From: Vicinamibacteria bacterium
GTDB taxonomy: Bacteria > Acidobacteriota > Vicinamibacteria > Marinacidobacterales > Marinacidobacteraceae
Assembly: GCA_965199715.1 (NCBI GenBank)
Contig: OZ241322.1
Span: 1,504,001-1,568,000, forward strand
DNA: 64,000 nt
Reading direction: 5' to 3'
Under the pieces are notes generated by a model that ran no database searches, was not told the origin of the DNA, and saw only the letters and a list, made by a program, of their open reading frames with translations. This document shows, piece after piece, positions 54,599 through 64,000 of the stretch. The translations under genes and the position numbers were made by a program. Every line of letters starts with the position of its first letter. Positions within the stretch are counted from its first letter, which is position 1.

Positions 54599-57006
54599 GT
54601 CGTCATCTCCGCCCGCGGCGCGGCGTTCTTGACGTGCCGCTCCAGCCACTCGTGCTGCTCCCACAGCGTGTGCATGACCGACTCGCGGGCGACGTAGCCG
54701 TGGCTCTCGTGCGGAAGCATCACGAGCCGCGCCACCGCGCCGTGCCCCTTCAGCGCGTGGTAGTAGCGCCGGCTCTGGACCGGGAAGGTCCCTGAGTTGT
54801 TGTCCACGATCCCGTGGATCAGCAGGATCGGCTCGTTCACCTGGTGGGCGTGCATGAACGGCGACATCCGGAAGTAGATCTCGGGCGCCTCCCAGAAGGT
54901 GCGCGGCTCGCTCTGGAAGCCGAAGGGCGTGAGCGTGCGGTTGAACGCGCCGCTGCGGGCGATCCCGGCCCGGAACACGTCCGAGTGCGAGAGCAGGTTC
55001 GCCGTCATGAACGCCCCGTAGGAATGACCGGCGATGGCCGTCCGGTCGGGGTCGGCGACGCCGCGGCGGACCGCCTCATCGACCGCGGCGCGGGCGCTCC
55101 CGACGAGCTGCTCGACGTAGCTGTCGTTCGGCTCCTCGTCCCCCTCGCCGATGATCGGGATCGTGGCGTTCTCCATGACCGCGTAGCCCTGCGTCAGCCA
55201 GTAGAGCGCCGAGCCCCAGCTCACGAAGCTGAACCGCTGCGGCGAGTCCCGCACCTGGGCCGCGGCCGCCGCGCTCTTGTACTCGCGGGGATACGCCCAG
55301 ACGATCAGCGGGAGCCGTCCGTCGGTCGCCGGGTCGTAGCCGGGCGGGGTGTGCAGCAGCGCGTTCAGCTCCACGCCGTCGGCGCGCTGGTAGCGGATCA
55401 GCTCGCGGCCGGCGCCCTGAAGCCCCGGGTAGGGATGCGGGAAGTCGGTCAGGGCGCGGGCCTCCCCGCCGAGATCGCGCAGGAAGTAGTTCGGCGGCGC
55501 AGTCCGGGTCTCCTTGCGGGTGAGGAGCAGCCCGGCTTCGGGATCGAGCAGCGCCATCGGCTGCTCGAAGGAGTCCGCGTCCGACTGGAAGAGCCGGCGC
55601 CGCTCGCCGCTCTCGAGGTCCCACTCGTCCACGAAGGGCCGGTTGCCCTCGGGAGACGCGCCCTCGGCGGTCAGGTACGCCTTCGAGCCGTCGGCGGACG
55701 TGAGCAGCGCGCGCGCTCCCCGCTCGTTCGTTGTGGTGAGCGGCATGCCCGGTGCGGCGTAGCGGTCCTCGTAGGAGACGTCGAACGCGAGCGTCGGCTC
55801 GCCCGAAGCCGGAATCGTCCAGATCTGCTCGGCGCGGGTGATCCACCAGCGGGTGATCGCGACCCCCCGGTCGTCGCCGAACATCGCCGCCGACATCCGC
55901 AGCGGAACCTGGAGGACGACCTCGGGATCGCCGTCGAACGGCGCGGCGAGCTGCATGAGCTCGTCCCTGACCGGCGCTTCGCGGTGCGGATCGCCGCCGT
56001 CGCGGGCCTCGATCCAGGTGAGCGTCGCGTCGTGGTCGCCCCGCCAGTCCACCGAGCGCGGCCCGGTGGGCGCGGAGTCCCGCCCGATGGGGATCTCCTC
56101 GTGGAGGGGAAGCTCGGCGACCTGGCGCCGGACGTCGCCGTTCGCGTCGCGCACCTCGATCCGCTGCGGGAACCGCGACCAGGGCACGAGCCACGAGAAC
56201 GGTTCGAGGACCGTGGTGACGAGGAAGTGCTCGCCGTCGGGGGCGGGGACGAAGCCGGAGATGAGCGCCGGTCCGGCGATCTCGGTCGCATTCCCGGAGA
56301 GATCGGCGACCACCGCCCGGGCGGCCCCGTAGTAGGCGAACAGCGCGTTGTCGTGCGGGCTCGCGAGCAGGTCCTGGTAGGTCCGGGCAGGGGCGACCCG
56401 CCCGGTGGACTCCTGGATCACCGGCGTGCGGGGCACCGCCGGAGCCTCCGGCGCCATGCCGCGATCCGGATCCACGATACGGACGGCGAGGCGCACGCCG
56501 TCGCTCATCCACCGGTACGGCGACCCGCGGAAGATCGCGTTCACCCCGGAGAGCACCTGGCTGGCGTCGCCGCTCGCGGCCTCGACGACCCAAAGCTCCA
56601 TCGCGTCGTCCCCGGTGTGGGTGAAGGCGAAGCGGGACCCGTCGGGCGACCAGCTCAGGTGGTCGCCCCGCAGCGGATCGGGCAGGCCGGCGATCTCCAC
56701 CGCGCCGCCGTCGATCCGCTGGAGCGTGAGATCCCGGAACATCCGCCGCCGGCTGGCCGCGGTCGCCGCGGGATCGATGCGCAGCCCGGCGAGCCGCAGT
56801 TCGGCGCGGGCGAGCTCGGCCAGCGGCACGAGGCTCGACCGGTGGGTCAGGACCGCGTGGGCCTTGTCGGGCGAGACCGAGATGCCGGGAGTCGGCGAGG
56901 CCTCGGCGATCCGCCGGATCTCCTCGGGAGGGGTCTGGTAGCCCTCCTGCGCGGCGGCGGTCAGCGCGAGCGCGGCGGCCGGAACGATCAGCAGTCGGTG
57001 GCGCAT
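54583..57006 (-). CDS. S9 family prolyl oligopeptidase (glutamyl-peptidase-like)
   Basis: Signal peptide; GHSYG nucleophile, IHGIVDNN, ESHGY. Confidence 0.92.
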   Translation of the reverse strand: MRHRLLIVPAAALALTAAAQEGYQTPPEEIRRIAEASPTPGISVSPDKAHAVLTHRSSLVPLAELARAELRLAGLRIDPAATAASRRRMFRDLTLQRIDGGAVEIAGLPDPLRGDHLSWSPDGSRFAFTHTGDDAMELWVVEAASGDASQVLSGVNAIFRGSPYRWMSDGVRLAVRIVDPDRGMAPEAPAVPRTPVIQESTGRVAPARTYQDLLASPHDNALFAYYGAARAVVADLSGNATEIAGPALISGFVPAPDGEHFLVTTVLEPFSWLVPWSRFPQRIEVRDANGDVRRQVAELPLHEEIPIGRDSAPTGPRSVDWRGDHDATLTWIEARDGGDPHREAPVRDELMQLAAPFDGDPEVVLQVPLRMSAAMFGDDRGVAITRWWITRAEQIWTIPASGEPTLAFDVSYEDRYAAPGMPLTTTNERGARALLTSADGSKAYLTAEGASPEGNRPFVDEWDLESGERRRLFQSDADSFEQPMALLDPEAGLLLTRKETRTAPPNYFLRDLGGEARALTDFPHPYPGLQGAGRELIRYQRADGVELNALLHTPPGYDPATDGRLPLIVWAYPREYKSAAAAAQVRDSPQRFSFVSWGSALYWLTQGYAVMENATIPIIGEGDEEPNDSYVEQLVGSARAAVDEAVRRGVADPDRTAIAGHSYGAFMTANLLSHSDVFRAGIARSGAFNRTLTPFGFQSEPRTFWEAPEIYFRMSPFMHAHQVNEPILLIHGIVDNNSGTFPVQSRRYYHALKGHGAVARLVMLPHESHGYVARESVMHTLWEQHEWLERHVKNAAPRAEMTTQPER

Positions 57007-57059
57007 GAGGAACCCTCCTGGGGGGAACCGCCAATCCTACGCCGGATACGATTCGGAAC

Positions 57060-57977
57060 GTGTCCCGCCTCGCCGTCGTCCTCCTCGCGTGCCTCCTGCT
57101 CGGCGGACAGGAAGCCCCGCTCCGCACCGCCGATCCGTTCCAGCGGGGCCTGACCGAGGCCGATTTTCCGCGGGTGCGGGAGCTCGCGCCCGGCGTGTAC
57201 TCCTACGCGCAGCTTCGTTCGGCCGGGGAGGAGCTCTTCACCACGGTGAGCCTCTTCGTCGTGACCGACGAGGGCGTGCTCGTGGCCGACGGGCAGGGCG
57301 ACTTCGAGGAGACGTCGCGGATGGTCGAGATGATCGGCGGGATCACCGACCAGCCGATCACCCACGTCGTGATCTGCTCGGACCACGGCGACCACACCGC
57401 CGGCAACGGCGCGTTCCCCGAGGGAGTCGAGTACGTCGTCCACGAGAATTCGGTCGCGCCGATGGAGGCGATGGTGGAGCGCATCCCCGGGATCCCCATG
57501 CCGCGAACGGTGATCGGTGACCGGCTCGACCTGACGCTCGGCGGCCGGGAGATCCAGGTCCGCTTCCTCGGGCGGGCGCACACCGGCGGCGATCTGGTGG
57601 TGTTCCTGCCCGAGGAGAGCGTGCTGTTCCTCGGCGAGACCTTCCTCCACCGGGTGTACCCGGCGATGCGCTCGGCCTACCCCACCGAGTGGGTCGCGAT
57701 GCTCCGGGCCGCCCAGGCCTTGGGGGCGCGTTGGAACGTGCCCGGGCACGGGTTCGTGGACGACCCCGACGTCCTCGAGGAGGAGCTCGGCGTCGCGGTC
57801 GAGGCCATCGAGACGGTGATCGCCGAATCCACCCGCCTCCACGGCCTCGGCCTCTCCCCGGAGGAAGCGCTGGAGCGGGCCGACTTCGGCGATCTGGAGA
57901 CCTGGTCGCTGCGGGACAGCCAGCGCGGCATGGCGCTGCGGCGCGTCTATCTGGAGCTCGACGGCGAACTGCCTTGA
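57060..57977 (+). CDS. MBL-fold metallo-hydrolase, exported
   Basis: SDHGDH variant motif, AHTGGD, VPGHG. Confidence 0.82.
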   Translation: MSRLAVVLLACLLLGGQEAPLRTADPFQRGLTEADFPRVRELAPGVYSYAQLRSAGEELFTTVSLFVVTDEGVLVADGQGDFEETSRMVEMIGGITDQPITHVVICSDHGDHTAGNGAFPEGVEYVVHENSVAPMEAMVERIPGIPMPRTVIGDRLDLTLGGREIQVRFLGRAHTGGDLVVFLPEESVLFLGETFLHRVYPAMRSAYPTEWVAMLRAAQALGARWNVPGHGFVDDPDVLEEELGVAVEAIETVIAESTRLHGLGLSPEEALERADFGDLETWSLRDSQRGMALRRVYLELDGELP

Positions 57978-60202
57978 ACCGGACGGCTCTCGTCCTGGGG
58001 CTGCTTCTCCCCGCCGGGGCCCAGGCGCAGAACCGGATAAGCGGACAGGTCGTGGTCGAGCCGACCGGGCGCCCCGCCGCCGGGGCGGAGGTCGCGCTCG
58101 CCGGGACCGGGATCGAGGTTCGGGCGGACGAGGAGGGCCGGTTTGTTTTCGAGGACGTGGAAGTCGGCGCTTCGGTCTCGGTGCGCGTCCGTCTCGGCCC
58201 GCTCGCGGGCGAGGTCGCCGTCGCTGCGACTCCGGGGACCGACGTGACGCTGGATCCCATTCGGATCGGGATCGCGGGCGCCGCCCACGAACACGTGACG
58301 GTGCACGCGCTCGGAGGGCGGACTTCGACCTTCGGCGCGGTCACTTCGTTCGAGGGCGCGCAGTTGGTCGAGGGGTCGCCGACTCTCGCCGAACTCCTCG
58401 AAGGCGCCCCGGGCGTATCCATCCGGAGCCTCGGTCCCGGCCCGGCGCGCCCGATCATCCGCGGCTTCGACGGCGACCGGGTGGTCATCCTCGAGGACGG
58501 CGTCCGCACCGGCGACCTGAGCAGCCAGGCGGCGGAGCACGGCATGGCGCTCGATCCGGCGCGGGCGGAGCGCGTCGAAGTCATGCGCGCCCCGGCCTCG
58601 CTGCTCTACTCGTCGAGCGCGGTCGGCGGCGCGGTGCAGATCGTCTCGCCGGTCTCCGAGTCGTCCGCCATCGACGGCTTCGAGGGCCGCGCCAGCCTCG
58701 GCCTGACCGGCGCCGACGGGGGGCGCCATGGGAGCGCCCGGTTCGAGACCGGCGACGGGAGGTGGCTCGCGTGGAGCGGCGGGAGCGTCCGGCGGACCTC
58801 GGACTACCGCTCGCCGCTCGGAACCGTGTCCGGGTCGGCGACGGAAATGCGCCAGGGAGAGGCGGGGCTCGCGCTCCACGCCGACCACGCCCGGCTCGCC
58901 CTGAGCGCCCGCATGGACGACAGCCGCTTCGGCGTGCCGATGGCGGGCATGCTGCACGGCGCGGGGGACGAGGGCGTATCCGTGGACGTCGAGACCGCCC
59001 GGCGGCAGTTGCGCGCCGACGTGGGGCTCCGGGATCTCGGCCCGATCGCCGACGAGGCGCGTTTCGTGTTTCATTTCAGCGACTTCCGGCAGGATGAGGT
59101 CGAGACCGAGGGGAGCGGCCCGCCCGCGCTGGAGACCCGCCACGACAACCGCTCGCTGGTCGTGCGCGCCGACGTCCTCCGACGGGGCTCCCGCATCGAG
59201 AGCCGCGTCGGATTCTGGGGGCAGCTCCGGGACTTCGGTTCGGCCGGCCCGGAGGCGCTGGCGCCCGACGTGACGCACGTCGCGATCGCGGCGTTCGGCC
59301 TCGGCGAGATGCGGGTCGCCGACCGCCTCGCGCTGCTGCTCGGCGCGCGCCTCGAACAGAACGCGTACCACGCCGGGAATCGGGGGAGCCGCGAGGACGA
59401 TGACGACGAAGGGCCCGAGCTCGAGGCGCCGGTCGCCATTGACCGGGAGTTCGCCGGAGCCTCGGCGAGCGCCGGCTTCTCGTTCGATCTCGGCGGCGAC
59501 GCCGCGGTCGCGCTGAACGGAACCTTCGCGTCGCGGGCTCCGGCGCTCGAGGAGCTCTACAACTTCGGCCTCGACGCCGGCGTCCAGGCGTTCGAGGTCG
59601 GCGACCCGCACCTCGACGAGGAATCCATCCGGGGCGTGGATCTCAGCGTTCGCCGCGACGCGGACGCCGGATCGGGGAGCCTCACCTTCTTCCGGTACGC
59701 GATCGCGAACGCGACGTGGGGCGCGGCGCGCGCGGGGGCGGACGGCGTCGCCCTCATCGAGACCATGCAGGCGGACGCCGTGTATCTCGGGACGGAGCTG
59801 GACGCCCGCATCCGGATCGGGAGCGCGACGCTGCGCGCCACGGCCTCCTGGGTGGACGCGAAGTTTCCTGGCCGGTCACGGTTCGCCCCGCGGATTCCTC
59901 CGCTCCATGGCCGGATGCGGCTGGACCTTCCGGTCGCCGGAATGCGGTTCTCGCCGGCGCTGCGCTGGGCGCTGCGGATGGACCGCGTCCACGAGAGCGA
60001 GACCCCGACCGACGGCTTCGCGGTCTGGGACGCGACGCTCTCCCGGCTGTGGATCGTCGGCGGCGCCGAGCACCACGTCTCGCTCGTGGCCAGAAACCTC
60101 GCCGACTCGGTCTATCGCCGTCACACATCGGTCATCAAGGACGTGGCCGCGCAGGCCGGCCGCGGCGTCAACGTGGCGTGGGCCATCCGCTTCCGCCGTT
60201 GA
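57974..60202 (+). CDS. TonB-dependent receptor (ZnuD-like), paralogue 1
   Basis: TTG overlapping upstream stop; N-terminal carboxypeptidase-regulatory-like domain; RPIIRGFDGDRV, RAPALEELY, RIPPL. Confidence 0.88.
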   Translation: MNRTALVLGLLLPAGAQAQNRISGQVVVEPTGRPAAGAEVALAGTGIEVRADEEGRFVFEDVEVGASVSVRVRLGPLAGEVAVAATPGTDVTLDPIRIGIAGAAHEHVTVHALGGRTSTFGAVTSFEGAQLVEGSPTLAELLEGAPGVSIRSLGPGPARPIIRGFDGDRVVILEDGVRTGDLSSQAAEHGMALDPARAERVEVMRAPASLLYSSSAVGGAVQIVSPVSESSAIDGFEGRASLGLTGADGGRHGSARFETGDGRWLAWSGGSVRRTSDYRSPLGTVSGSATEMRQGEAGLALHADHARLALSARMDDSRFGVPMAGMLHGAGDEGVSVDVETARRQLRADVGLRDLGPIADEARFVFHFSDFRQDEVETEGSGPPALETRHDNRSLVVRADVLRRGSRIESRVGFWGQLRDFGSAGPEALAPDVTHVAIAAFGLGEMRVADRLALLLGARLEQNAYHAGNRGSREDDDDEGPELEAPVAIDREFAGASASAGFSFDLGGDAAVALNGTFASRAPALEELYNFGLDAGVQAFEVGDPHLDEESIRGVDLSVRRDADAGSGSLTFFRYAIANATWGAARAGADGVALIETMQADAVYLGTELDARIRIGSATLRATASWVDAKFPGRSRFAPRIPPLHGRMRLDLPVAGMRFSPALRWALRMDRVHESETPTDGFAVWDATLSRLWIVGGAEHHVSLVARNLADSVYRRHTSVIKDVAAQAGRGVNVAWAIRFRR

Positions 60203-60207
60203 CGTGC

Positions 60208-60216
60208 TGCTAACAT
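60208..60216 (+). promoter_or_regulatory. Putative extended -10 element (TGC-TAACAT) of leader ORF 1
   Basis: 11 nt upstream of ATG 60228; same motif and spacing as in copy 2. Confidence 0.55.
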
Positions 60217-60227
60217 GGTCGGCCGCC

Positions 60228-60491
60228 ATGCCTCCCCGCGCCCGATTCCTCGTAGTCGGGCTCGCGGCCTGCCTGCTGGTCGCCGCGCCCCTCGCGCTGG
60301 CCCTGCATGAGCACGAGGCGGAAGAGCACTGCGATCCGTGTCGCATGGGCGGTCCCTCGCTCGGGGCCCTCCGGTTCGACCCCGTTCTGGTCACGGCGCC
60401 GCAGCCCGAGGAATGCGTCCTCGAGGCGCACCCGGCCCCGCGTTCGGAAGCGCGATCGACCACGTGCGGTCCACGCGCTCCGCCGGCCTGA
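60228..60491 (+). CDS. DUF2946-like leader protein 1 (signal/TM, His-rich + CxxC, C-terminal RAPPA)
   Basis: MPPRARFLVVGLAACLLVAAPLALALHEHEAEEHCDPC...GPRAPPA*. Confidence 0.8.
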   Translation: MPPRARFLVVGLAACLLVAAPLALALHEHEAEEHCDPCRMGGPSLGALRFDPVLVTAPQPEECVLEAHPAPRSEARSTTCGPRAPPA

Positions 60492-60500
60492 CGGTCGGCG
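60481..60500 (+). promoter_or_regulatory. Hairpin with leader stop codon in the loop (copy 1)
   Basis: CGCCGGCC-TGAC-GGTCGGCG, 8-bp stem with one G-U. Confidence 0.65.
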
Positions 60501-60584
60501 CGCAAACTCTCGGGATCGGGCCGCCCCCGCCGGCGGGCCTCTAGCAGTTCGTCCCTCCATGTCCTCACGCAGGAGGTGCGTTCA

Positions 60585-62999
60585 ATGTCGAGGAGACTCT
60601 CTCCCTTTCTTTCTTGTTGTTGTTGCGGGCTGGCCCTCGCCGCTCCCGCCGCAGCCCAGACCCTGACCGGGACCGTCGCCTTCGAGGCGAGCGGTGCGCC
60701 GGCCCGCTCCGCCGAGGTGGTCGTGCTCGAGACCGATCAGGTCACCCATACCGAGAGCGACGGCCGGTTCGAGATCGAGCTCGCCGAGCGGCTCGACGAG
60801 TACACCGTCCACGTGGAGCTCGCGTTCCACACCGCGCAGAACACCGTCGCCGTGGAGCCCGATCAGTCCATGATCGAGCTTCAGGTTCCCATCCTGCTCC
60901 GCCTCGGCCGCCTGCATGAGCGGGTGACCGTGAGCGCGTCGGCCAGCGCCGAGGCCCCGCTGGAGGCGTTCGGATCGCTGCACGCTCTTTCCGGCGTCGA
61001 GCTCCAGAACGTGCCCGCCCGCAATCTGGCCGAACTTCTCGAGGGCACGCCGGGAATCGCGATCCGCAGCTACGGACCCGGCGCCGCACGCCCGATCGTG
61101 CGCGGGTTCGACGGCGACCGCGTCCTCATCATGGAGGACGGCGTCGGCACCGGCGATCTTGGAAGCAACTCCGCCGACCACGGCGTGCCCGTGGATCCGC
61201 TCCAGGCGGAGCGGGTCGAGGTCGTGCGGGGGCCGGCGACGCTGCTCTACGGCTCGAACGCGATCGGCGGCGCGGTGAACGTGATCTCGATGGCGTCGCA
61301 CCTGTCGAACGGGCCCCCGCCGGGGTTCCGGGGACACGCCAACGTGGATTACTCGACGGCCGACGAGGGACGCCGGGGCGGCGCCCGGTTCCAGGCCGCC
61401 GGAAGCGGCTGGTTCGCTTGGGGCGGCGGAAACTCGAACCGCACCGGCGACTACGAGTCGCCGACCGGCGTGGTGCCCAACTCCGAGACCTCGATGGACC
61501 AGGGCGAGGCCGGATTGGGCGTCTTCGGCGACCGGGCGTGGTTCTCCGGCAGCGTCCGGATCGACGACTACAGCTACGGCGTCCCGTACGCCGGCGAGTT
61601 CCACGGTTCGCACGACCACCACGGGCACGGCGAGGAGATGGGCCATGACGACCACGGGCGCGACGAACGCATGGAGGAGGAAGGCCACGAGGAGGAGCTC
61701 CAGATCGACGTGACCATGAACCGCCGCCAGTTACGCTCGGATTTCGGCGTCCGCGAGCTCGGCGCGGTCTTCGACGAGGCCGAGCTCACCGTTCGGTATA
61801 GCGATTACGACCAGGACGAGGGGGAGCTGTTCGCCGGCGCGACGGAAGAGGTCCTCGCCACGCACTTCGACAACCGCTCGCTCGTCCTCCGGGGCGAGCT
61901 CAAGAAGCCCGCCGGCCGCTGGACCAGCCGGGTCGGGCTGTGGAGCCACTTCCGCGAATACCAGGCGTCGGGGGAGGAATCGCTCGCGCCGAAGACGCGG
62001 CAGAATGCCTTCGCGGCCTTCGCCTACAACGAGTTCGAGACCAACGACCGGCTCTCGTTCCTCATCGGCGCGCGACTGGGGCGCAACGCCTACGACCCCG
62101 AGGCTCGGGTCGAGTCGGATGGGCATGGTCGTGAAGAGGCGGTGGAGGAAGGCCACGAGGGGCACGACCACGGCCATGACCACGGGCACGAGGAGGAAGA
62201 GGCGCACGAAGAGGAGCGCGAAGCCCCGGCGCCCATCGACCGGGACTTCATCGCCGTCTCCGGCAGCGCCGGGGCCCGCCTGTCGCTGACCGACGACACC
62301 GCGCTGGTCGGCACCGCCAGCCTCTCGACCCGCGCGCCCTCGATCGAGGAGCTCTACAACTTCGGCCTCCACGGCGGGACCCGGTCCTTCGACATCGGGA
62401 ACCCGAGCCTCGACCCCGAGCGGTCGCTCGGCCTCGAACTGGGCCTGCGCCACAGCTCGGACATGTTCTCCGGCAGCGCGAGCTTCTTCCGCTACGACAT
62501 CGCCGACTTCATCTTCGGCGTGGACACGGGGGAACGGGTGGAAGGACTCTCCGTGCTCCGGTTCTTGCAGTCGGACGCCGTCTATCAGGGATACGAGGTG
62601 GAGGGGCACGCCGACCTCGGGCCGGCGGAGCTCGTGGCGAACGCCTCCTACGTGGACGCGACGCTCACCCAGACCGACGAGAGCGCACCGCGCATCCCGC
62701 CGCTCCAGGGCCAGTTGCGGCTCGACGTGCCCTTCGGCGAACTCCGGCTCTCGCCCCGGCTTCGCTGGGCGTCTCGCATGGACCGGCTCTACCGGAACGA
62801 GGAGGCGACCGACGGCTACGCGGTGTTCGACTTCACGGCGTCGTACGTGATCGTCACCGGAAGCGCCGTCTCGAACATCTCGCTGCGGGCCTACAACGTC
62901 ACCGACGCCGAGTACCGGTTCCACACCTCGCTCATCAAGGATCTCGCCCCGCAGATGGGCCGCGGGTTCCGGATCAGCTATTCGATCCAGTTCTTCTAG
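60585..62999 (+). CDS. TonB-dependent receptor (ZnuD-like) with two His/Glu-rich loops, paralogue 2
   Basis: SD AGGAGGT 60571-60577; RPIVRGFDGDRV; HGSHDHHGHG and GHEGHDHGHDHGHE loops; terminal F. Confidence 0.92.
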   Translation: MSRRLSPFLSCCCCGLALAAPAAAQTLTGTVAFEASGAPARSAEVVVLETDQVTHTESDGRFEIELAERLDEYTVHVELAFHTAQNTVAVEPDQSMIELQVPILLRLGRLHERVTVSASASAEAPLEAFGSLHALSGVELQNVPARNLAELLEGTPGIAIRSYGPGAARPIVRGFDGDRVLIMEDGVGTGDLGSNSADHGVPVDPLQAERVEVVRGPATLLYGSNAIGGAVNVISMASHLSNGPPPGFRGHANVDYSTADEGRRGGARFQAAGSGWFAWGGGNSNRTGDYESPTGVVPNSETSMDQGEAGLGVFGDRAWFSGSVRIDDYSYGVPYAGEFHGSHDHHGHGEEMGHDDHGRDERMEEEGHEEELQIDVTMNRRQLRSDFGVRELGAVFDEAELTVRYSDYDQDEGELFAGATEEVLATHFDNRSLVLRGELKKPAGRWTSRVGLWSHFREYQASGEESLAPKTRQNAFAAFAYNEFETNDRLSFLIGARLGRNAYDPEARVESDGHGREEAVEEGHEGHDHGHDHGHEEEEAHEEEREAPAPIDRDFIAVSGSAGARLSLTDDTALVGTASLSTRAPSIEELYNFGLHGGTRSFDIGNPSLDPERSLGLELGLRHSSDMFSGSASFFRYDIADFIFGVDTGERVEGLSVLRFLQSDAVYQGYEVEGHADLGPAELVANASYVDATLTQTDESAPRIPPLQGQLRLDVPFGELRLSPRLRWASRMDRLYRNEEATDGYAVFDFTASYVIVTGSAVSNISLRAYNVTDAEYRFHTSLIKDLAPQMGRGFRISYSIQFF

Positions 63000-63009
63000 G
63001 GGGTCGCCG

Positions 63010-63037
63010 GGCGGCGGGGCTCCGGCTCCCGCCGTCC
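63010..63037 (+). terminator. GC-rich hairpin after receptor 2 (possible terminator or stabiliser, no U-tract)
   Basis: GGGCGGCGGGG...CTCCCGCCGTCC inverted repeat. Confidence 0.4.
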
Positions 63038-63045
63038 ACCGATGG

Positions 63046-63054
63046 TGCTAGCAT
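63046..63054 (+). promoter_or_regulatory. Putative extended -10 element (TGC-TAGCAT) of leader ORF 2
   Basis: 11 nt upstream of ATG 63066, mirroring copy 1. Confidence 0.55.
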
Positions 63055-63065
63055 CGCCGGACGCC

Positions 63066-63314
63066 ATGGCTCGGTCGGTTCGGTTCGTCGTCTTGGGGGT
63101 CGTGGCTTGCCTGCTGGTCGCCGCGCCCCTCGCGCTCGCCCTGCACGACCACGCGGAGTCGCGCTGCCACGGCTGCGAGACGCCGTCGGCGTCGGCGGTC
63201 GAGGCCCCGCCCGGCCTCGCGCCCGCGCCCGAGGCCGGCGAGCGCCCGGAACGCAATGTCCAGGCTCCCGCCCCTCCCGCAAACTCCCGGAATCCGCGCG
63301 CGCCGCCGGCCTGA
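63066..63314 (+). CDS. DUF2946-like leader protein 2 (signal/TM, HDH + CxxC, C-terminal RAPPA)
   Basis: MARSVRFVVLGVVACLLVAAPLALALHDHAESRCHGC...NPRAPPA*. Confidence 0.8.
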   Translation: MARSVRFVVLGVVACLLVAAPLALALHDHAESRCHGCETPSASAVEAPPGLAPAPEAGERPERNVQAPAPPANSRNPRAPPA

Positions 63315-63323
63315 GGGCCGGCG
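63304..63323 (+). promoter_or_regulatory. Hairpin with leader stop codon in the loop (copy 2)
   Basis: CGCCGGCC-TGAG-GGCCGGCG, perfect 8-bp stem. Confidence 0.65.
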
Positions 63324-63396
63324 ATCCTGCGTTCGGGAGCGGAATGCCCCGCCCGCGGGCCTTCCTTCCCTTTCGAGAGCGCCCGGAGGTGCCCTC

Positions 63397-64000
63397 ATGT
63401 CGCGAACGACCCTTCTCCTTGCGTGCGCCCTCGCGCTGACCGGCGGCGCCGCCGCCCAGACCATCTCCGGAAGCGTCGTGATCGGCGCGAACAGGGAACC
63501 GGCGCACGGCGCCGAGGTCGCGGTGATCGAGACGAACCAGCTCGCCCACACCGGCGAAGACGGCCGATTCGAGATCGAGCTCGCCGAGCGGCATGACGAC
63601 GTCACGCTTCACGTGGAACTGGGATTCCTCGCCGCGAACCACAGCGTCGTCACGGCGGGCCAGGACATGGTCGAGATCGAGGGCTCCATCGTGCTCCACG
63701 CCGGCCACCGCCACGAGCAGGTGACGGTGAGCGCGTCGGCCCGCGACGTCGTTCCGCTCGAGGCGTTCGGGTCCCTGCACGCCCTCTCCGGGCTCGAGCT
63801 CCAGCACGTTCCGGCCCGCAACGTGGCGGAGCTGCTGGAAGGCACGCCCGGCGTGGCGGTGCGCAGCTTCGGTCCCGGTTCGGCCCGCCCGATCGTGCGC
63901 GGGTTCGACGGGGACCGGGTCCTCGTCATGGAGGACGGAATCCGCACCGGGGATCTCGCGAGCCAGTCGGCGGACCACGGCGTGCCGGTGGACCCCCTCC
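63397..64000 (+). CDS. TonB-dependent receptor, paralogue 3 (3' truncated by window edge)
   Basis: SD GGAGGT; MSRTTLLLACALALTGGAAAQ...RPIVRGFDGDRV, very similar to paralogue 2. Confidence 0.9.
   Translation, partial: MSRTTLLLACALALTGGAAAQTISGSVVIGANREPAHGAEVAVIETNQLAHTGEDGRFEIELAERHDDVTLHVELGFLAANHSVVTAGQDMVEIEGSIVLHAGHRHEQVTVSASARDVVPLEAFGSLHALSGLELQHVPARNVAELLEGTPGVAVRSFGPGSARPIVRGFDGDRVLVMEDGIRTGDLASQSADHGVPVDPL

Follow-up and report, generated by a model that had tools for sequence, protein, structure and literature searches.

Upstream open reading frames (uORFs) that end in RAPP or RGPP and carry localisation signals are enriched before metal genes, those for TonB-dependent receptors among them (PMC12992588). 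CruR of Bordetella pertussis, a DUF2946 protein with CXXC and RAPP, controls the downstream receptor by way of Rho, which terminates transcription within a spacer of 162 nt; Rho enters at a C>G region at the leader end, and the spacer itself is described only as probably highly structured (PMC9426467). CruR-bfrG is the only pair of RAPP leader and receptor to have been characterised. CutF of Rhodobacter capsulatus controls cutO via ribosome-assisted melting of a stem-loop that contains the Shine-Dalgarno (SD) sequence (PMC9973294; bioRxiv 10.1101/2025.02.05.636593), and for ApcA, ApdA and ApdP no SD hairpin is predictable (PMC7897499). RAPP-type uORFs before TonB-dependent receptors are thus already published, and the idea of an arrest peptide with an expression platform is known from CutF-cutO. 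Here we analyse a 64,000-nucleotide stretch of a Vicinamibacteria bacterium genome (GCA_965199715.1, contig OZ241322.1, positions 1,504,001 to 1,568,000; hereafter the window) in which two leader ORFs, 60228-60491 and 63066-63314, each precede a TonB-dependent receptor after a spacer of 82-93 nt. All window features are given in window coordinates and lie on the forward (+) strand. These spacers are very probably cis-regulatory RNAs of a CruR/CutF-type arrest switch. At a rough probability of 45%, we read them as the expression platforms of such a switch, with three conserved parts as the RNA that reads out the arrest: a hexamer (b1), a hairpin (P1-P2) carrying a second hexamer (b2), and an anti-SD sequence.

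The closest described system, CruR-bfrG (crtA), resembles this locus in its long G+C-rich spacer after the leader and in the C>G region at the leader end. With 82-87 aa, where CruR has 145, the present leaders are shorter; they also carry an extra invariant HxH and do not reach the Pfam cut-off, and the spacer measures 82-93 nt rather than 162 nt and has a conserved fold where the CruR spacer is said only to be "probably highly structured." The receptors also differ, being ZnuD- and heme-like with His-rich loops, and the metal may therefore not be copper. CutF-cutO resembles this locus in that its nascent exported peptide, Pro-rich at the C-terminus, senses metal, a stem-loop of anti-SD and SD masks the downstream gene, and melting by the ribosome has been proposed. 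The CutF stem-loop, however, lies close behind the leader, and metal prolongs the stalling, whereas the anti-SD here lies ~60 nt past the ribosome footprint, behind a separate hairpin. Since the downstream gene here is an uptake receptor, the switch logic should be inverted relative to CutF. SecM-secA, MifM-yidC2 and VemP-secDF2 likewise combine an arrest peptide near the C-terminus with an N-terminal localisation signal and an SD sequestered in the spacer, but they sense the translocation machinery, and their arrested ribosome directly overlaps the SD helix. In TnaC-tnaA, a ribosome held at the leader end hides a Rho entry site beside the stop codon, as may happen here, but the TnaC ligand is sensed in the tunnel at the stop codon and TnaC has no localisation signal.

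A conserved RNA element in the leader-receptor spacers

A covariance model built from 22 spacers of the leader group that includes both window copies (group A, described below) identified 33 spacers in 27 of the 28 genomes of family f1, to which this genome belongs, and none in 8 genomes of family f2 or 19 of family f3. We located the parts of the element relative to the inferred arrest site. By analogy with ApdA/ApdP (PMC10951233), the RAPP codons of leader 1 (60474-60485) would place the P site at 60480-60482 and the A site at 60483-60485. The conserved hexamer b1 (GYCGRC), which is also the 3' arm of the stop-codon hairpin discussed below, begins 15-16 nt beyond the P-site Pro codon, counted from the first nucleotide of that codon; on the same count its core occupies +15 to +20 in 22 of the 33 spacers and +16 to +21 in the other 11. 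The window cores are GTCGGC at 60494-60499 in copy 1 (+15 to +20 by the alignment) and GCCGGC at 63317-63322 in copy 2. At locus L072 the stop codon lies 21 nt further downstream, yet the distance between b1 and RAPP is unchanged.

Downstream of b1 lies the P1-P2 hairpin (P1, P1b and P2 in the alignment), at 60512-60555 in copy 1 (-19.1 kcal/mol) and at 63335-63370 in copy 2 (-20.1 kcal/mol, z -1.86), where a 13-nt internal segment is missing. The support for the copy 1 hairpin comes from its homologues. In a MAFFT alignment, 90.9% of the cells of P1/P1b/P2 are paired, against 21-65% when the strands are slid, and 5 pairs change on both sides, against 1.4 in shuffled alignments (1/500). In a model-fitted alignment of the 33 sequences, which is biased towards the structure, 92.5% are paired and 7 pairs change on both sides, against 2.7 in shuffles (1/500). 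These compensatory changes, together with the 33 instances in 27 of 28 genomes, support the view that the spacer is under selection as an RNA.

In the apical loop of this covarying hairpin lies b2, GCCGGC at 60529-60534 in copy 1, which is complementary to b1; its equivalent in copy 2 is GCCCGC at 63351-63356. RNAalifold pairs b1 with b2, a second copy of the hexamer ~50 nt downstream. Across the whole alignment b2 is the best partner of b1, with 98.5% of cells paired and full pairing in 30/33 sequences; the next best partner reaches 81% and 3/33, and the 5' arm of the stop hairpin 72% and 2/33. Nearly all b1:b2 changes are one-sided (U-G to C-G, G-U to G-C or A-U), and a single cell is two-sided. 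Five sequences have GCCGAC as b1; this is the Watson-Crick complement of their b2, GUCGGC, and not a copy of it, gives 7-9 perfect pairs and favours pairing over a mere direct repeat. The linkers and the loop between anti-SD and SD vary freely, while b1, b2 and the anti-SD are fixed, and the distant loci L216 and L225 keep b1, a 10-bp P1 and b2. A further helix between CCUGA (leader end plus stop) and UCRGG (5' foot of P1), which would have made a 1:2/2:3/3:4 chain, was rejected: all five pairs are present in 14/33 sequences, and the middle C breaks the helix in 8.

Searches for the element elsewhere added little to this set. A degenerate-pattern search returned 75 stretches in metagenomes, of which 4 were model-positive (three of equal score), and 91 in genomes; 80 of the latter were searched with the model, 16 were positive and only L216, a weak match, was new. 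Of ~10 pattern matches in Achromobacter, the 6 that were inspected are false, all lying out of frame inside a larger gene. An Rfam search of 57000-64000 gave four matches (E 6.9-10), all below their gathering scores and none in either spacer; one of these, NLPC-P60 at 63043-63100 (20 bits, E 6.9, gathering score 53.7), is sub-threshold and touches only the 5' end of leader 2. No such spacer motif was found in Rfam or in the accessible part of the DUF2946 literature, the supplements of which may hold spacer structures or homologue lists.

Masking of the Shine-Dalgarno sequence

An initial annotation of this DNA had proposed that the receptor SD can be sequestered in each copy and that the spacers share several sequence blocks. 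The blocks are present as TCGGGA, CCCCGCC.GCGGGCCT and, before ATGTCG, GGAGGTGC, and so are the masking sequences: CCTCC at 60554-60558 and GGAGG at 60572-60576 in copy 1, and GAGAGCGCC-CGGA-GGTGCCCTC at 63375-63396 in copy 2. Sequestration itself is predicted for copy 1, where the hairpin folds at -13.0 kcal/mol (z -2.56, 2/200 shuffles as good) and the SD has a predicted unpaired probability of 0.00. In copy 2 it is predicted only in part: the hairpin at 63375-63396 (-11.7 kcal/mol, z -1.04, 30/200 as good) takes only some of the SD (GGAGG, 63385-63389) into its stem, with GGA in the loop, and the predicted unpaired probability is 0.57.

Over the homologues, pairing of the CCUCC anti-SD with the receptor SD is conserved, with 97% of cells paired and full pairing in 29/33. 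The anti-SD lies at the 3' foot of P1, as in copy 1, and its first two C's are the last two C's of P1; in copy 2 an anti-SD-like CCTTC (63364-63368) lies inside the 3' arm of the P1-P2 hairpin. A further anti-SD-like word, CCUCU, is present in 26/33 sequences, where it overlaps P2 on its 3' arm. The median of the predicted SD-unpaired probability is 0.026 for the 33 spacers and 0.235 for 108 other genes in the genome whose SD is GGAGG, although the 33 spacers are related to one another and the Mann-Whitney P of 6e-8 therefore overstates the difference. A CCTCC within 50 nt upstream occurs in 28/33 spacers and in 11/108 of the other genes. Conserved masking of the SD by an upstream CCUCC, above the genome background, is thus supported by the sequence comparison.

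The stop-codon hairpin

The stems that the initial annotation had placed around the leader stop codons read exactly as claimed, CGCCGGCC-TGAC-GGTCGGCG at 60481-60500 (8 bp; -17.6 kcal/mol, z -2.24, 5/200 shuffles as good) and CGCCGGCC-TGAG-GGCCGGCG at 63304-63323 (8 bp; -18.4 kcal/mol, z -1.86, 11/200 as good), each with TGA in the 4-nt loop; all of its coordinates and strings were in fact correct. Its proposal that this hairpin is a conserved element did not survive the comparison with homologues. Over the 33 sequences, 71% of the cells of its eight pairs are formed; all eight pairs are present in 2 sequences, both of them the window copies, while 7 pairs form in 5, 6 in 14, 5 in 5 and 4 in 7. 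Same-genus relatives form 4/8 pairs, and the centre pair is present in 8/33. Covariation among homologues, named by the annotation as a check, is found in the P1-P2 hairpin, but it supports no pair of the stop hairpin in the 33 sequences. The single difference between the two window stems, U at 60495 and C at 63318, does pair with G either way, as had been noted, but the change is one-sided and suits b2 as a partner equally well.

A weak closure around the stop codon is common (15/22 minimum-energy folds, the innermost stem having 1-4 bp), as expected from the CC that closes the last codon and the GG that opens b1. The stop hairpin is perfect only if CCG serves as the second Pro codon and GCC follows it. 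We conclude that the 8-bp hairpin is a lineage-specific strengthening, in the duplicated pair of this genome, of an alternative pairing between the C-rich leader end (b0) and b1, and not the core of the device. We also folded the spacers with the ribosome footprint forced single-stranded, using nested thermodynamic folding without pseudoknots. In the free window RNAs the stop hairpins form with probabilities of 0.65 and 1.00, and both are lost under the footprint. The claim that a ribosome at RAPP would melt this hairpin thus agrees with the window copies, in which the 5' arm would be covered and the 3' arm, b1, freed; the release of the SD that should follow was not seen in the folding.

Features bearing on the readout

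A ribosome covers about +12 to +15 nt of mRNA, and a duplex is possible from about +12. The anti-SD lies ~60 nt beyond this edge, and in the 33-sequence alignment neither the anti-SD nor the SD has conserved complementarity to the footprint region. Of the two features common to SecM, MifM and CutF, one is present here, the pairing of the SD with an anti-SD, and the other is absent, an SD-helix strand within reach of the arrested ribosome.

As for transcription, C outnumbers G over roughly the last 60 nt before the stop codon (-60 to 0; 23-33 of 33 sequences per 30-nt window), a region that lies under the inferred footprint, and again downstream. A Rho gene is encoded in the genome. Neither spacer contains an intrinsic terminator, and the two sites predicted elsewhere correspond to the chance rate. 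RNA-library contigs (two libraries) span leader 1, spacer and receptor 2 (60124-61063), and contigs also span receptor 2, leader 2, spacer and receptor 3 (62470-63512); such libraries may include DNA carry-over, and gaps in contig cover are not interpretable. A metatranscriptome contig of run X7 leaves the genome sequence at 60521, within the spacer hairpin, and is extended there by an A-rich untemplated stretch. This weak, single-contig observation may reflect the tailed 3' end of a truncated transcript or an assembly artefact.

The leader family

The two window leaders share one build: a hydrophobic N-terminus, HEH or HDH, CxxC, ~45 variable residues and a terminal PRAPPA-TGA. Leader 1 has 87 aa, with a hydrophobic N-terminal anchor, HEH, CxxC and a C-terminal RAPPA before its TGA (60489-60491), and leader 2 has 82 aa and the end RAPPA-TGA; N-terminal hydrophobicity was read from the translations. 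The genome contains 114 RAPP-ended frames, of which only 4 have this build. Three identical transposase-like frames ending in LLRAPPA do not have it and were set aside as chance. The two leaders besides the window copies (TM-HxH-CxxC...RAPPA) lie outside the window on contig C1, at 697140-697397 and 1766986-1767231. One of these paralogues has a TAA stop, a long spacer and then a receptor-like ORF; the other precedes an ABC-transporter ATPase, before which a 10-bp palindromic hairpin is followed by a tight CUCCC/GGGAG hairpin that contains the SD. The window leaders are 56% identical to each other and 29-35% identical to these two paralogues. As each other's closest relatives, they share their features by inheritance, and we count them as one observation rather than as independent evidence.

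A profile of the 4 leaders found the family in 24 of the 27 other genomes of family f1 and gave only marginal matches elsewhere in the order. The members fall into three groups (4 out-of-frame regex matches were left out and 2 rows moved between groups): group A ends in ...PRAPP[A/S]-TGA and has a spacer of 82-102 nt with a receptor downstream; group B ends in ...RRPARAPPA-TAG before a long spacer; group C ends in ...GGSRAPPA-TGA with an ABC ATPase downstream. The genes downstream of leaders are TonB receptors or an ABC ATPase. In 33 aligned members the invariant columns are H27, H29, C35, C38, R, P and P, and A is nearly invariant. In 55 of 61 members RAPP or RGPP is followed by one residue and the stop. 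In the other 6 (4/23 in group B, 1/33 in group A and 1/5 in group C) the ORF continues 7-16 codons past RAPP-x, so where the stop lies is not essential. These loci, L005, L006, L011 and L033 of group B together with L072 and L040, have a sense codon in place of the stop after RAPP-x, and the extension reads through what is spacer RNA in their relatives. The run-on fits a translation that in effect normally ends at RAPP.

DUF2946 is the commonest weak Pfam match of the family (23/33 members at E<=1, best 3.2e-4), and 2 of the 4 paralogues in this genome match it at E 0.28. The features of CruR/CutF uORFs that are present here are CXXC, a C-terminal RAPP, an N-terminal anchor and a place before metal-homeostasis genes; the Pfam cut-off is missed. 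On these motifs and this position we regard the leaders as divergent CruR/CutF-like (DUF2946-type) uORFs. Two metagenome contigs, L124 and L135, carry a different small ORF (…CHLKSPTHCSAC…RAGRAPPA-stop) with its own hairpin directly after the stop and UCUCC...GGGG before the next gene; their RAPP leader belongs to a further lineage, in which the spacer is built differently.

The receptors and other features of the locus

Receptor 2 extends from 60585 to 62999 (start ATG 60585-60587, SD GGAGG 60572-60576), and receptor 3 starts at 63397 and continues beyond the window end at 64000. No leader precedes receptor 1. Its TTG start (57974) and the TGA of an MBL-fold ORF (57060-57977) overlap as TTGA at 57974-57977, which suggests translational coupling in place of leader control. 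A family search identified Plug and barrel domains in the receptors. The best NCBIfam match of all three is the zinc receptor ZnuD, with scores well under the cut-off (for receptor 2, 204 bits where 950 are required), and receptor 2 has two long His/Glu/Asp-rich loops, at 61600-61700 (HDHHGHGEEMGHDDHG...) and 62130-62225 (HEGHDHGHDHGHEEEE...). The ZnuD-like match and the His-rich loops may indicate that the sensed metal is zinc rather than copper. A 9-mer, TGCTA[A/G]CAT, is common to both leaders (60208-60216 and 63046-63054) and ends exactly 12 nt 5' of each ATG. One possible role is that of a -10-like element, which would give a very short 5' leader; a simple sigma-70 scan predicted no promoter at the 9-mers and none in the spacers.

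Discussion

Based on these findings, we propose a mechanism in which the leader would be a membrane-anchored peptide and the spacer would contribute four conserved RNA parts: b1 at the leading edge of the arrested ribosome, the covarying P1-P1b-P2 hairpin, b2 in its apical loop and the CCUCC anti-SD. The arrested ribosome would cover the C-rich leader end, b0; with b0 covered, b1 would be free to dock on b2, and with b1 docked, transcription and translation of the receptor would proceed. Metal binding would release the arrest, whereupon the ribosome would advance two codons to the stop, run into b1 and depart. The bare C-rich tail of the leader and the masked SD would then lead to a failure of initiation, to Rho-dependent termination in the spacer, or to both. 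The arrest could accordingly be read out through unmasking of the SD, through shielding from Rho, or through both, and Rho-dependent attenuation is an equally good candidate for this step. With its first nucleotide exactly at the leading edge of a RAPP-arrested ribosome, b1 might dock only during the arrest and be unwound upon the two-codon advance, so that b1, P1-P2(b2) and the anti-SD would work together as a sensor of ribosome position; we consider this specific proposal doubtful.

Several results weigh against this scheme. The 33 spacers come from the single family f1 and are not independent. Both b1 and b2 are near-palindromes, so that two copies pair by construction and their pairing falls short of statistical proof; the putative b1:b2 helix is argued for by conservation and complementarity. 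The P1-P2 hairpin of copy 1 is no more stable than its shuffles (z +0.19), and single-sequence folding gives mean pair probabilities of 0.16 for P1, 0.37 for P2 and 0.05-0.09 for b1:b2, the last being 0.00 in both window copies. L216 and L225 have no CCUCC anti-SD. The opening of the SD by a stalled ribosome, as proposed in the initial annotation, was not reproduced: the mean SD-unpaired probability is 0.09 in the free RNA, 0.10 with the ribosome arrested and 0.10 with it at the stop codon, in a test that is weak in both directions because nested single-sequence folding misses the comparative structure. None of the 33 members reaches the gathering score of Pfam PF11162 (DUF2946); the window leaders match no family at E<=0.001, and leader 1 has no DUF2946 match at all. 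What the sequences themselves show is the anatomy, its conservation, the P1-P2 covariation and a masking of the SD above background; that arrest occurs, which metal is sensed, in which direction the switch works and how control is divided between translation and Rho are features that we infer.

Three other explanations have to be weighed. The initial annotation, taken literally, makes the stop hairpin the sensor helix of a purely translational, CutF/SecM-like switch, in which the RAPP-stalled ribosome melts the stem, the spacer refolds and the SD opens. The free window RNAs do form the hairpin and lose it under the footprint, the SD is masked, and melting of an SD stem-loop by the ribosome is what CutF-cutO uses (PMC9973294). 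We nevertheless consider this explanation improbable, as the full hairpin occurs in 2/33 sequences, its centre pair in 8/33 and 4/8 pairs in same-genus relatives, with no covariation, the stop codon is displaced in 6/61 members, the SD stays paired under the footprint mask, and the anti-SD, ~60 nt further on than the footprint, is not tied to it by any conserved pairing. At the other extreme, the folds may have no switching role and may be by-products of 71% G+C, of Pro/Ala codons and of GCCGGC-like palindromes, or form a plain stability or processing element. The whole spacers are indeed no more stable than shuffles (z -0.53 and -0.97), nor is the hairpin of copy 1, b1 and b2 are near-palindromic, and single-sequence folding misses the consensus structure. 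The compensatory changes in P1/P1b/P2, however, exceed both the shuffled and the slid controls, b1, b2 and the anti-SD stay fixed while linkers and loops vary freely, and b1 keeps its distance from RAPP even at L072, where the stop has moved; an absence of any switching role therefore seems highly improbable to us.

Another possibility is purely transcriptional attenuation of the CruR type, in which the arrested ribosome would shield a C-rich Rho-loading site and, after its release, Rho would terminate transcription in the structured spacer; the hairpin would then be a pause or stop zone, and masking of the SD would merely keep the spacer free of ribosomes. CruR-bfrG is the same gene pair with the same motif, and Rho termination was mapped there to the 162-nt spacer (PMC9426467). 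In the present locus, C exceeds G before the stop codon and again downstream, Rho is present, the spacers have no intrinsic terminator, and the RNA-library contig that ends at 60521 has an A-rich tail. On the other hand, a G+C-rich, structured spacer makes a poor substrate for Rho, such a mechanism does not need b1, b2 and the anti-SD to be conserved, another RNA-library contig reads through the spacer, and termination is a prediction rather than a direct observation. As the whole explanation, Rho-dependent attenuation is thus possible, if somewhat unlikely. The arrest switch with b1, P1-P2(b2) and the anti-SD as its readout, our preferred reading, keeps the annotation's view of the spacer as an expression platform, to which the signs of selection at the RNA level and the conserved masking of the SD lend support, and drops the stop hairpin as the conserved part.

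RAPP leaders are by now known to be common ahead of metal genes, including those for TonB-dependent receptors, while the mRNA readout of the arrest has been worked out for only two cases, with differing mechanisms, Rho in CruR and an SD stem-loop in CutF. The compact, covariation-backed spacer motif described here, with its well-delimited blocks, lends itself to telling these readouts apart. If the position-sensor proposal were true, a displacement of 6 nt would be turned into an on/off decision for a gene ~90 nt away, which would also answer how RAPP leaders with no adjacent SD hairpin act, the question raised by ApcA, ApdA and ApdP. Finally, the extra HxH of the leaders and the ZnuD-like, His-rich receptors suggest that in this family the same device has possibly been retuned to a metal other than copper.

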